Shown here piece by piece: positions 2 to 4,223 of a stretch of 64,000 nt of DNA (position 1 is its first letter; each line of letters begins with the position of its first letter). The DNA comes from Ostreococcus lucimarinus (lineage: Eukaryota). A program made the translations under genes and the position numbers. The notes under the pieces were generated by a model. The model searched no databases, was not told the origin of the DNA, and saw only the letters and a program-made list of their open reading frames with translations. The stretch lies in NCBI GenBank assembly GCA_000092065.1, contig CP000594.1. One strand, written 5' to 3'.

Positions 2-400
2 TTGGCGCTGAGAAATCCAAACGCGTACGCGAGCGCGAGCGCGTTCGCTCCGATTGCTAATCCGACGGCGTCGGATTGCCCGTGGGGACAAAAGGCGCTC
101 AAGGCCTACCTTGGGAGCGCGGATTGCGATGAGGCGAAATCGCACGACGCGACGGAGCTCGTGAAGAGCGTCGAGGCGGGCACGTTTAAGATGCCGATTT
201 TAATTGATCAAGGCGCGGCGGACTCCTTTTATAAGACGCAGTTGCACCCTGAGCGTTTCGTGGACGCGGCGAAAGAGCGTGGATGTGATGTCACGTATCG
301 TCTGCACGATGGTTACGATCATAGCTACTTTTTTGTTTCCACGTTCATGCGCGAGCACATCGAGTTCCACGCCGCGGCGCTGGGAAGTCTTAAAATTTAA
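2..400 (+). CDS. S-formylglutathione hydrolase / esterase D, C-terminal fragment (gene begins upstream of the window)
   Basis: ORF track 2..400. Motifs ILIDQGxxDxFY and LHDGYDHSYFF...HIEFHA are typical of esterase D / SFGH. TAA stop at 398-400. The TTG start in the track is an artefact. Confidence 0.8.
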   Translation: MALRNPNAYASASAFAPIANPTASDCPWGQKALKAYLGSADCDEAKSHDATELVKSVEAGTFKMPILIDQGAADSFYKTQLHPERFVDAAKERGCDVTYRLHDGYDHSYFFVSTFMREHIEFHAAALGSLKI

Positions 401-454
401 TGACATTGATAATCGGTTGTGAAAGTAATTATACGGTTGAGAAGGACCGCTTGA

Positions 455-1715
455 TTAATCGAAGCTCAACACGCATCGTAAGCACTTGCCTTCGTGCAAC
501 AGCTCGAACGCTTCGTTGATTTGATCAAACTTCATGCGGTGCGTGATGTATCTGTCGAGTTTCGTGTTTCCGCCCATGTACTTTTCGACCAGTTTCGGCA
601 CGGCGATGCGGCTCTTGTACCCGCCGAAAGCGGTACCTTTCCACGTGCGACCGGTGACGAGTTGGAATGGTCTGGTTGAGATTTCCGTGCCCGCGGCGGC
701 GACGCCGACGATGACGGAAGTCCCCCACCCCTTGCGGCAGCATTCCAAAGCGCTTCGCATGACGTTGACGTTTCCGACGCATTCGAACGAATAATCCACT
801 CCACCGTCCGTCATCTCCGCGATGACAGTTTGTGAATTTTTATCGCCAAACTTTGTCGGGTTCACAAAATCCGTGGCGCCGAACTCGCGCGCCACGGCTT
901 CCTTTTCGTCGTTGGTGTCGACAGCGATGATGCGCGTCGCGCCCGCCTCCACAGCCGCCTCCACGCACGCCAATCCGACGGCGCCCAGACCAAACACCGC
1001 CACGGAGCTCCCCTCTTCGACCCGCGCCGTGTTATGCACCGCCCCCCACCCCGTGCTCACGCCGCATCCCAGCAGGCACACCTTATCCAACGGCGCCTCG
1101 TCGTTCCCCACCTGCGCCACCGCCACCTCGTGCACCACCGTGTACTCGGAAAACGTCGACGTTCCCATGAAGTGAAAAATCTCCGACCCGTCGCTCGCGA
1201 GCGTAAATCTCGGCTTCCCGTCGTTCTTCATCACCCCCGCGCCCGTGTACGCCCGCACCGCCTGACACAGGTTCGATTTCGGATGCACGCAGTGCGCGCA
1301 CGGCTCCTTCGCGATGTCCGCGCAGTACGCCTGATAGCACGGAATCACCCGATCGCCCGCTTTACACGACGTCACGCCCTCGCCGACGGATTCCACCGTC
1401 CCCGCCGCCTCGTGTCCCAGGATGCACGGAAACTTCCCCTCCGAGTCGTGTCCGCCGAGCTGTTCGACGCGTCGGCGTCAGTCCGAGACGATCGACGGCG
1501 CGTCCGGGTCGAGTCGGCACGCGCGCGCGCGCGCGATTCGCGCGGCGAGCGCGCACCGTGTACGCATCCGTGTGACACAGCGCGTTGTACGCGATTTTAA
1601 TTCGCACTTCGCCCGCCTGCGGCGGCGCGACGACGACGTCGACGATTCGCAGCGGCTCGCGCGGCGCGAACGCCACCGCCGCCTTGCACGCGATCGGCTC
1701 GCCCGCGCGCGACAT
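455..1715 (-). CDS. Class III alcohol dehydrogenase (glutathione-dependent formaldehyde dehydrogenase), two exons: ~1557..1715 and 455..~1459
   Basis: Exon 1 (ATG at 1713-1715) encodes [16 protein letters not shown]...CHTDAYT. After T53 that reading frame departs from ADH homology. Exon 2 (track ORF 455..1396, extended upstream in frame) reads [29 protein letters not shown]...[11 protein letters not shown], giving full-length ADH3-like homology (~387 aa). Confidence 0.9.
1460..1556 (-). other. Spliceosomal intron (~97 nt) of the ADH3 gene; donor GTGCGCGC, acceptor ..AACAG
   Basis: Placed by restoring the ADH3 alignment AYT|[11 protein letters not shown]. Both exon boundaries are phase 0. GT..AG read on the minus strand. 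Coordinates approximate (+/-2 nt). Confidence 0.6.
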
Positions 1716-2191
1716 GCGCTCGCGAGGCGATCAGTGGCGACGCGCGAACGCGAAGGGGACGTTTTTCGCGACGACGATTCGACGACGACGGCGCGGGAAA
1801 CGACGAGGCGTCGCGACGGACGGCGCGCGGAGTTACAAGCGAGCGTCCGCTACGGCTTGGCGCTCGCGAGGGGGGCGACGTACTGCGTGGACTGCTGAAA
1901 CGCCTCGATCTCGCGGTGAATCGCGTCGACGGCGTCGGGCTGGACGAGGACGCGACGCGCGTCGAGGTCGACGACGACGAACTTGCGCTCCGCGGGCGCG
2001 ACGTCGTTGAGGTGGAGGATGTACTGCTTGATGGGGACGTCGGCGGTGATCATGACGCCGTGGACGGCGGAGACCATGGCGCGCGCGAGGCGCGGTCTGC
2101 GGGTCGCGGCGACGACGCGCGCGGCGAAGGGAGAAATGGGCTAAAACGAGGGCTAAAACGAAGACCGATGGCGAGGTCGGTGATGGCTAAA

Positions 2192-3148
2192 TCATGGCGC
2201 GCCGTAGAGCCGCGCCCACGGTGGACGCGGGGCGTGGACGTCGACGCGGAGGTTGGATTTGGGGTGGCGAAACGCGACGCGCTCGGCGTGGAGCAACGCG
2301 CCGGCGACGCGACGCGCGGAGAAAGGCGCGTCGATCGGTCCGTCGCGAGTCGCGGCGATCGGTCCGCCGTATCTCACGTCGCCGACGAGCGGAAGTCCGA
2401 GCGACGCGCAGTGAAGTCTGATCTGGTGCGTGCGACCGGTGAGCGGGGAGCAACGCGCCAACGCGACGCGGTGTCGTCGGCGGTCGGCGTCGTCGGCGGT
2501 CGGCGGTTCGCAAAATCGCAGCGCCACGCCGTCGGTGATCACGCGCTCGACGATGATCGTGGTTTCGGCGTGCTTGACCTTGACCTTTTTGTTCCCGGGA
2601 AGCGCGCGGCCGATGTCCGCGGCGTCGTAGAGACGGAAGAGGCCGTATTTCGCGCGGCCCCAACCCGTGAATACTCTGCGATGATCTTCAACGCCGTCGT
2701 AATCCGCCGTCGCCGCGCACAGCGCGACGTACGTCTTCTGCACCGTGCCGTCGGCGAATTGCGCCGACAAGCTGCGAATGGCGTCTCGATTTCGCGCGAC
2801 GACGAGACATCCGGAGGTGTCGCGGTCGAGTCTGTGAACGACGCGCGCCGACTCCGAGGCGTTGAACGGCACGTCCCGCGTCGTCGCGCGGTTATCGACC
2901 GTGGTCGCATCATCGCATTTCACCATGCCTCGCTCGACGAGGCGTTCTATATCGTGCACGTACGTCTGCGCAGGCTTGTTCAGGACGTAGACGTCGTCGT
3001 CGACGTACACCGCGAGCAACGGGACGCCGGCGGCTGCGTCCGCTCTCGCCGCGCGTTCGCACGACTCCGCGCGCTCGCCCTCGATCGCGCGCGCTGCATC
3101 ACTCGGCGGCCCAGGACGGAGCGTCGGTTTGGGATATTCGGTCGACAT
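2192..3148 (-). CDS. RluA-family pseudouridine synthase
   Basis: Motifs HRLDRDTSGCLVVA, KTYVALC and PLTGRTHQIRLHCASLGLPLVGDVRYGG. The track start at 3235 is GTG; the first ATG (MSTEYPKPTL) is at ~3146-3148. Confidence 0.8.
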   Translation of the reverse strand: MSTEYPKPTLRPGPPSDAARAIEGERAESCERAARADAAAGVPLLAVYVDDDVYVLNKPAQTYVHDIERLVERGMVKCDDATTVDNRATTRDVPFNASESARVVHRLDRDTSGCLVVARNRDAIRSLSAQFADGTVQKTYVALCAATADYDGVEDHRRVFTGWGRAKYGLFRLYDAADIGRALPGNKKVKVKHAETTIIVERVITDGVALRFCEPPTADDADRRRHRVALARCSPLTGRTHQIRLHCASLGLPLVGDVRYGGPIAATRDGPIDAPFSARRVAGALLHAERVAFRHPKSNLRVDVHAPRPPWARLYGAP

Positions 3149-3245
3149 CTCGCCGCGAGGCGATAAATGATGAGACGCAGGGCGAAACCTCGAGCGTCCA
3201 GCGTCGCAAACTTTTGCGACGCGAATGACGCTCACCCCATTTTAC

Positions 3246-4223
3246 CTACGGTACAGCACAGTGACGACCGCCGATATACGCATACGTCGGTCTTTCATAA
3301 CGTGGAATCCGCGTCGCACTCTTGAGGTAGCGATCGATCGGCGGTTCGCGAGCGACGGCGGTTAAGAATTCACCACACCGCGGCAAATTCAGACGCGTCG
3401 CGAAATCGGGCACTAAATCCTCCTCCGCGAGCTCGAACAGCGTTTCGAATAAAGCTAAATCGACATACGTCAACGACTCGCCGACGAGCCGCGAATTTCC
3501 GTTACGCTCTAGGATTTCCTCGAACACGCGCAGCGCCTGCCGCGAACGCGCCGGCACCGATAAATTATTCACGCGATGCGTCTCTTGAAACCTCGCGCAC
3601 TCAGCGTCTTCGCGTCTTTCAATGCTCTCTTTCAATGCCCTCGCGCTGTACAGCTGTCCATCGTGCGTCAATCCGCCGTTGCGAATAGTGTGCCAATATT
3701 GCATAAAGAGTTCGTCGACGCGCGCGCGCTCATACTCGTTCGCGCCGTCCAAACTCAACTCTCGCCCCAGGTATCTGATTATCGCCGTTTCGTGGGAAAC
3801 GTCGTTCGCACACCCATCGATGTCTACCAAACTCGGCGTCTTCCCGAACGGCGTCTTCGGTTTCACTTTCGGCCACGCGAGGTAGCCGACGACTTCGACC
3901 GCGTGCGGCGCTCGCGCGAGTTCGAGCATCATCCGAATTACCTCGGCGCGATTCCGCATCGGCATGTACTGCAGCCAATATTTCGCAGCCTTCGCGCCGT
4001 CGCCGTCGCAGTGGCGGTACATCACCGCGTGGACGTCCGTGCTCCATAAATCTTTCGACGCGAAGAGTTGCTTTTTCAACGCCTCGGGCGTGATTTCCGC
4101 GAGCGTTTCGTCGCGTTTCGCGCGCGCGGCGACGCGTCGCGCGCGCGCGCGCGTCACAGTCGCGCGCGGTCTCGTCGCGCGCCGCGCCGCGCGCGGCGTC
4201 GGCGCGGGTCGCGCCGCGAGCAT
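3246..4223 (-). CDS. Glutathione S-transferase-like protein with Arg-rich N-terminal presequence (possible organellar targeting)
   Basis: GST N-domain motif KTPFGKTPSLVDIDG..SHETAIIRYL and C-domain LVGESLTYVDLALFETL. ATG at 4221-4223. Confidence 0.7.
   Translation of the reverse strand: MLAARPAPTPRAARRATRPRATVTRARARRVAARAKRDETLAEITPEALKKQLFASKDLWSTDVHAVMYRHCDGDGAKAAKYWLQYMPMRNRAEVIRMMLELARAPHAVEVVGYLAWPKVKPKTPFGKTPSLVDIDGCANDVSHETAIIRYLGRELSLDGANEYERARVDELFMQYWHTIRNGGLTHDGQLYSARALKESIERREDAECARFQETHRVNNLSVPARSRQALRVFEEILERNGNSRLVGESLTYVDLALFETLFELAEEDLVPDFATRLNLPRCGEFLTAVAREPPIDRYLKSATRIPRYERPTYAYIGGRHCAVP

Follow-up and report, generated by a model that had tools for sequence, protein, structure and literature searches.

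Tail-to-tail adjacency of the ADH3 and esterase D genes is conserved in Ostreococcus and related picoalgae

In the 64,000-nt stretch of Ostreococcus lucimarinus contig CP000594.1 analysed here (hereafter the window), the genes of two consecutive enzymes of glutathione-dependent formaldehyde oxidation, class III alcohol dehydrogenase (ADH3, also S-nitrosoglutathione reductase, GSNOR) and esterase D (EstD, an S-formylglutathione hydrolase, SFGH), stand tail to tail at the very start of the sequence. The adjacency is real and conserved, and it looks like ordinary gene order in a compact genome. Esterase D follows ADH3 in the pathway and hydrolyses the product of the ADH3 step to formate and glutathione; the reduction of S-nitrosoglutathione is a further activity of ADH3. 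The two stop codons are separated by 54 nt, which confirms the convergent layout with stops about 55 bp apart given in an initial annotation of the window. The window opens inside EstD, and metagenome contigs that are 99.1-99.5% identical to it (L001-L006) were used to complete the truncated gene; near-identical sequence recurs across JGI metagenome samples and SRA runs.

Results and discussion

Conservation of the pair in related lineages

The initial annotation had reckoned with a chance adjacency, which would show as a lack of conserved linkage in related picoalgae. Instead, the convergent pair is kept in four related lineages: in another Ostreococcus (contig L007; 85% identity to the window for ADH3 and 69% for EstD, spacer 31 bp), in a relative with a GC content of 59% (L010; 78% and 55%, spacer 85 bp) and in two relatives with GC contents of 51% (L015; 71% and 55%, spacer 62 bp) and 45% (L017; 72% and 52%, spacer 269 bp). 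The last two are called Bathycoccus-like here, and two further contigs with a GC content of 68% (L013 and L020) Micromonas-like, both names being derived solely from base composition (GC) and the ADH3 tree. In L013 and L020, which carry a Mamiellales-type ADH3, EstD was not found within 6-10 kb of ADH3, and the context of ADH3 differs (LigB ... bZIP, PUB/UBX); a screen of the EstD database matches by amino-acid composition did not identify the EstD of this lineage. EstD is likewise not adjacent to ADH3 in Chlorella sorokiniana (L019), and in one large genome of an unrelated eukaryote EstD occurs without ADH3 beside it.

In every lineage with the pair, the gene next to EstD encodes a sugar-type transporter of the MFS family, and a DIRP/LIN9 gene comes after it (L001 9967-15778; L007, L010, L015 and L017), in some lineages with a DUF6691/Sulf_transp gene between the two. 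The EstD-MFS adjacency is conserved equally to ADH3-EstD. The conserved unit is therefore the block ADH3-EstD-MFS-DIRP, within which the pathway pair does not stand out. Where L015 and L017 are rearranged, the changes affect the long stretch (520-710 bp) upstream of ADH3 and spare the short spacers.

The 54-bp gap is normal for the window. Three other convergent pairs, in which both genes are Pfam-supported, have stop-to-stop gaps of 69 bp (EXS/Arf), 87 bp (cofilin-domain protein/RRP12) and 97 bp (ketoacyl synthase/P-type ATPase), and 50 bp separate a VPS13-like gene from a 233-aa open reading frame (ORF) without a Pfam match. Tandem gaps among the neighbouring glutathione S-transferase (GST), RluA, Tfb5 and ADH3 genes measure 58-134 bp. 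Gene density is high in positions 1-4300, as in the rest of the window, and the GC content of this part is ~62%. On inspection, no sequence similarity between lineages was evident in the spacer.

Transcripts of the pair

Ten Logan contigs from public data (L025-L034) are 99% identical to the window. Two of them, L028 (positions 1-20) and L034 (positions 1-21), open with GTATCAACGCAGAGTACGGG, which in L034 stands directly before the 5' start of ADH3; we take it to be the 3' portion of the SMART template-switching oligo, which marks exact mRNA 5' ends. The contigs are therefore cDNA assemblies. Exactly window positions 1460..1556 (97 nt) are absent from their DNA, which encodes an uninterrupted ADH3 of 388 aa. 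These contigs establish that the predicted ADH3 splice is correct and that ADH3 and EstD are expressed in nature.

The contig ends are clustered at the 5' ends of ADH3, EstD, Tfb5 and MFS: three contigs begin 1-20 nt ahead of the ADH3 ATG, four terminate 5-45 nt past the EstD ATG, one begins 21 nt ahead of the Tfb5 ATG and three terminate 143-282 nt past the MFS ATG. The 5' untranslated regions (UTRs) of both Tfb5 and ADH3 are only ~20 nt long. Transcription of ADH3 starts ~18-20 nt upstream of its ATG, and the promoter must fit into the 134 bp that separate this ATG from the stop codon of Tfb5.

Three contigs (L032-L034) span from the ADH3 cap site to the 5' end of EstD, with the whole 54-bp spacer covered by reads. 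Longer cDNA contigs also bridge Tfb5-ADH3 and EstD-MFS, and multi-gene contigs span Tfb5-ADH3-EstD-MFS. Since the neighbours are bridged as well, bridging reflects the compactness of the genome and is not specific to the pathway pair. It had been claimed that the 3' UTRs of ADH3 and EstD must overlap. The contigs that cross the spacer give this claim indirect support and suggest 3' overlap or read-through, but the contigs come from unstranded assemblies and showed no poly(A) site.

Similar arrangements are published for Micromonas, where convergent overlapping pairs occur, mean intergenic distances are 167-211 nt and assemblers concatenate adjoining genes (van Baren et al. 2016, PMC4815162). 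The ADH3/EstD pair resembles these convergent overlapping pairs of Mamiellales in its tail-to-tail orientation, in its compact prasinophyte genome and in the transcript assemblies that cross both genes. It differs from them in that the Micromonas pairs lie mainly in the low-GC region and have large flanking upstream distances (PMC4815162), whereas ADH3/EstD lies in ordinary high-GC sequence and its 3' overlap is suggested by unstranded contigs rather than mapped.

Identity of the two enzymes

The minus-strand gene is, from its sequence matches, a predicted class III alcohol dehydrogenase (ADH3/GSNOR). Its spliced product of 387 aa scored 531.4 bits on TIGR02818 compared with an equivalog cut-off of 543.95, the next family being at 257 bits, and exon 2 alone matched TIGR02818 with 6e-131. 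Small insertions relative to Chlamydomonas GSNOR1 (an ADIAKEP loop and LASDG) may be the source of the shortfall. Among solved structures, Chlamydomonas GSNOR1 (7AAS) was the best match with 587 bits, followed by plant GSNORs (538-555 bits) and human ADH5 (493 bits), whereas class I and class P alcohol dehydrogenases reached at most 402 bits, well below the GSNOR-type enzymes. The assignment made in the initial annotation holds on these grounds. The segments ...QAVRAYTG... and ...GHDSEG... align with GSNOR sequences, and both the Arg that binds glutathione (Arg115 in the human enzyme) and the Asp/Glu in the DxEG segment are retained.

Removal of the intron rejoins conserved protein sequence after ...CHTDAYT. 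The ADH3 ORFs of the four related lineages are intronless and continuous through this position, and the 97-nt intron is present only in the window's species. L013 and L020 have another ADH3 intron, 14 codons upstream, after ...EVRIK. In a check for an introner-like element, a search of the window with the initial 30 nt of this intron, allowing up to 3 mismatches, gave no other copy. The cDNA contigs and the window differ at the C-terminus of ADH3 (L030 ~3055-3095 vs window 455-490), where the contigs read ...CVLTMCD instead of ...CVLSFD; the difference is accompanied by a ~15-nt tandem duplication just before the stop, and either variation between strains or an artefact of assembly could explain it.

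The plus-strand ORF with which the window opens is predicted to be the end of an S-formylglutathione hydrolase/esterase D gene. The 132-aa fragment matched PF00756 (6e-14) and TIGR02821 (2e-40), and the full protein of 296 aa, completed on L001 (9000-9890, minus strand), passed the curated equivalog cut-off of TIGR02821 (324.9 vs 281.7 bits). It aligns over its whole length with solved SFGHs, including 8ilj, 6jzl and human 3fcx, and the motifs of the Ser-Asp-His triad as well as the Cys of LSGLTCT are all aligned with them. Of the triad, the Asp (IDQGAAD) and the His (YDHSY) are encoded within the window. The Ser nucleophile (GHSMGG), a short distance ahead of the window start, and the Cys, likewise outside the window, are found on L001. 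With the cut-off passed and the triad motifs present, the EstD identity proposed earlier is borne out.

Probable retention of an ancestral adjacency versus possible selected linkage

We infer that an ancestral tail-to-tail adjacency of ADH3 and EstD has probably been retained passively, although we hold this with only moderate confidence. ADH3 and EstD are genuine, separately transcribed housekeeping genes, each with a promoter on its outer side and with their 3' ends sharing the 54-bp spacer; the locus has neither an operon nor a shared promoter, nor a third gene of the pathway. The adjacency would most likely have come about by rearrangement, once before the split between Ostreococcus and the Bathycoccus-like lineage or earlier in Mamiellales, in the latter case followed by loss from the GC-68% lineage, and would since have persisted passively inside the block ADH3-EstD-MFS transporter-DIRP. 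Spacers of 31-85 bp, which must hold two 3' ends, are poor targets for viable breakpoints; within so short a convergent spacer, hardly any breakpoint could fall without damage to the 3' end of a gene. General synteny in a compact genome would produce the same pattern of conservation.

Two observations weigh against passive retention. In the low-GC relatives, about 2 of about 8 local adjacencies survive, and ADH3-EstD is among them. Moreover, the same two genes have been coupled repeatedly, in bacteria as neighbours of the adhC-fghA/frmAB type and in diatoms and ciliates through independent fusions (described in passages of PMC3143110), which raises the prior for an advantageous linkage.

It is possible, but in our judgement unlikely, that the adjacency is kept by selection, with the two genes forming a co-regulated unit through a shared chromatin domain or through crosstalk between their 3' ends. 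Such a unit would fit the consecutive pathway steps of the two enzymes, the occurrence of the pair in five lineages with EstD proteins diverged to 52-55% identity, the recurrent independent coupling described in passages of PMC3143110, and the expression of both genes in environmental cDNA with transcripts joined across the spacer. Convergent genes, however, cannot have a common promoter, and overlapping convergent transcripts in yeast have been tied to interference or mRNA-duplex regulation and not obviously to coordinated induction (abstracts of PMC3900390 and PMC6993858). The equal conservation of EstD-MFS, the absence of the pair from the GC-68% Mamiellales-type relatives and from Chlorella, and the varying length of the spacer and its lack of evident sequence similarity also argue against selected linkage, as does the published finding that convergent pairs with overlap occur generally in Mamiellales genomes (PMC4815162).

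More doubtful again is the bolder proposal that the convergent pair with its shared 3' end region is a selectively maintained regulatory unit and represents a third independent coupling solution beside the operon and the fusions. If it were true, the Ostreococcus/Bathycoccus pair would be a tractable eukaryotic case of the linkage of pathway partners by gene order alone. If the linkage is selected, the same two enzymes are coupled in three ways (operon, fusion protein and neighbouring genes), and the benefit could be measured directly, the genes being movable by homologous recombination in this alga. On present evidence, the locus mainly illustrates that short tail-to-tail spacers preserve neighbours in a hyper-compact genome, and a genome-wide null model is therefore needed before an adjacency of pathway partners is read as functional.

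The linkage had been called unusual in eukaryotes, a statement that needs qualifying: fusions of these two genes are published, with SFGH-FALDH in diatoms and, independently, the reciprocal FALDH-SFGH (FSF1) in ciliates (Stover et al. 2005, described in passages of PMC3143110). The fusions and the Ostreococcus pair are alike in that exactly these two eukaryotic genes are physically coupled; the fusions, however, give one in-frame polypeptide from one strand, whereas Ostreococcus has two proteins encoded on opposite strands. An SFGH/FALDH fusion gene was rejected for the window, since the two ORFs run on opposite strands and each ends in its own stop (398-400 and 455-457). In full-text literature searches, no report of the neighbour-gene version of ADH3/EstD in Ostreococcus and its relatives was found.

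Fusions were also encountered among the sequences collected here. In-frame SFGH-ADH3 fusions with N-terminal presequences are encoded on eukaryote contigs (P0241, L022 8001-10574; P0319, L023 793-3366), P0374 is a complete SFGH-ADH3 protein of 677 aa, P0333, P0347, P0349, P0363 and P0377 are further fusion proteins, and P0364 is a 665-aa fusion in the reverse order (ADH3-SFGH). Fusion ORFs occur in many 50%-identity clusters, some with a very GC-rich coding style, so the SFGH/ADH3 fusion may extend far beyond the diatoms and ciliates for which it was published in 2005.

Descent of the two genes

Bacterial operons for glutathione-dependent formaldehyde oxidation include frmRAB of Escherichia coli, adhC-fghA/adhC-estD of Moraxella and flhA-fghA of Paracoccus. 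They resemble the Ostreococcus pair in the enzyme families encoded (TIGR02818-type ADH3 and TIGR02821 SFGH), in the consecutive steps catalysed and in the side-by-side position of the genes. The Ostreococcus genes differ from them in being convergent and monocistronic, each with its own outer 5' end; ADH3 has a spliceosomal intron and is green-algal by descent, and no FrmR-type regulator lies at the pair. An frmAB-type operon, with both genes on the same strand under one promoter, was rejected as a description of the locus, where the genes lie on opposite strands and have separate 5' ends on their outer sides. It is very improbable that the pair derives from a transferred bacterial operon of the frmAB/adhC-fghA type, as suggested among other possibilities in the initial annotation.

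ADH3 is, as judged from its phylogeny, vertically inherited in the green algae. Clusters 84% identical to the window protein include O. tauri CAL57555.1 and O. mediterraneus, with which it forms a clade at 100% bootstrap, so that the window belongs to a further species of Ostreococcus; ADH3 is nested inside the green algae with 98% bootstrap. The top named matches are green algae at ~70% identity, next to a few over-long plant and vertebrate models that also score high, and the best solved relatives are the Chlamydomonas and plant GSNORs; both points speak against a bacterial source.

EstD evolves faster than ADH3, with identities of only 61-69% within Ostreococcus. In favour of a transfer, the matches that follow the Mamiellales orthologues are mainly bacterial (Vibrio, Neisseria and others, 48-52% identity), and no chlorophyte is among the best 120 EstD matches. 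Fungal sequences, diatom-type fusions and human ESD, however, score in the same range as the bacterial proteins, with ~50% identity to all of them alike. A neighbour-joining tree with 100 bootstraps was calculated from 112 sequences (50%-identity cluster representatives, named matches and sequences of solved structures). It groups EstD in an Ostreococcus/Bathycoccus-like clade (81%) and gives every deeper node 0-5% bootstrap; no specific bacterial sister of EstD appears in it. If anything, the clade stands beside fungal sequences, and among the representatives nearest to it the only organism named was Wallemia, for the cluster of P0341. Phylogenies of both enzymes had been proposed earlier as a check for a bacterial-type origin: the ADH3 tree speaks against one, and the EstD tree, given the low support of its deep nodes, decides neither for nor against one. 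An old horizontal origin of EstD alone is conceivable. With ADH3 apparently vertical, EstD lacking a bacterial sister and the genes convergent rather than co-directional, an operon-like transfer is thus not supported.

Neighbouring genes

Ostreococcus itself has a nitrate-assimilation cluster. Such clusters of green algae and fungi are described as eukaryotic metabolic gene clusters (passages of PMC6400420 and PMC4620153). The ADH3/EstD pair is like them in that non-homologous, functionally related genes adjoin in a eukaryote, and differs in comprising two genes only, a third candidate, the GST, having failed. A eukaryotic metabolic gene cluster, with at least three contiguous and conserved pathway genes, was rejected for the locus, which has only two pathway genes and a GST that is separated from them and absent in the relatives.

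The GST had been counted as a pathway neighbour. A GST-fold ORF does lie on the ADH3 strand, 1.5 kb away, but Tfb5 and a pseudouridine synthase gene, both unrelated to the pathway, sit between it and ADH3 (Table 1), and no GST homologue was found at the syntenic loci of L007, L010, L015 and L017, so that the position is occupied only in the window's species. The GST is not regarded as a pathway member because S-hydroxymethylglutathione, the glutathione-formaldehyde adduct, arises spontaneously and needs no enzyme (PMC6409631). Together with its sigma-class-like character and its possible targeting extension, this leaves a three-gene glutathione/formaldehyde cluster that includes the GST with next to no probability.

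Table 1. Features at the start of the window, with positions counted from its first nucleotide.
Feature	Position	Strand	Remarks
EstD 3' part	2..400	+	last 132 codons and TAA stop (398-400); truncated by window start
Spacer between convergent stops	401..454		54 bp, AT-rich (39% GC); must contain both 3' ends
ADH3 exon 2	455..1459	-	334 codons and TAA stop (455-457)
ADH3 intron	1460..1556	-	97 nt, GT..AG, phase 0, between Thr53 and Leu54; GC-rich
ADH3 exon 1	1557..1715	-	53 codons; ATG 1715-1713
ADH3 5' UTR	1716..1735	-	transcription start ~18-20 nt upstream of ATG, from cDNA contig starts
TFIIH subunit Tfb5 (75 aa)	1850..2077	-	PF06331 1e-21; unrelated to pathway
RluA-family pseudouridine synthase (318 aa)	2192..3148	-	PF00849 1e-27, TIGR00005 4e-37; ATG at 3148; unrelated to pathway
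GST, predicted sigma-class-like (325 aa)	3246..4223	-	GST_C_3 1e-11

Judged by its structural matches, the GST is a predicted sigma-class-like enzyme: the best solved structure was 4q5f (1e-18), followed by many chains of sigma GSTs and haematopoietic prostaglandin D synthase (HPGDS), and Pfam matches of the N-terminal domain were below the cut-offs. The protein has an Arg/Ala-rich N-terminal extension of ~75 residues, which is possibly an organelle-targeting peptide. Homologues of ~300 aa with 42-62% identity are abundant in public metagenome-derived proteins, mostly from ENA/JGI, and form a family without a named member. Tfb5 adjoins ADH3 in L007 and L010 and is two genes off in L015. RluA, for which the 318-aa gene call was made on L001, is missing at this position in L010.

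Other features of the window

Rfam and tRNA scans of positions 1-4300 gave no match, and no tRNA gene was detected anywhere in the 64-kb window. A C/D-box snoRNA on the minus strand (53019-53098) matched Rfam snoR117 with 43.4, barely above the gathering score of 42. One VPS13-like ORF of 4,511 aa, with the domains VPS13_N, Vps62 and VPS13_C, occupies positions 30366-43901 of the plus strand. Its body makes up a low-GC block at ~32-44 kb (46-51% GC vs 60-68% on both sides), and the GC content is normal in the first 1.6 kb of the ORF.

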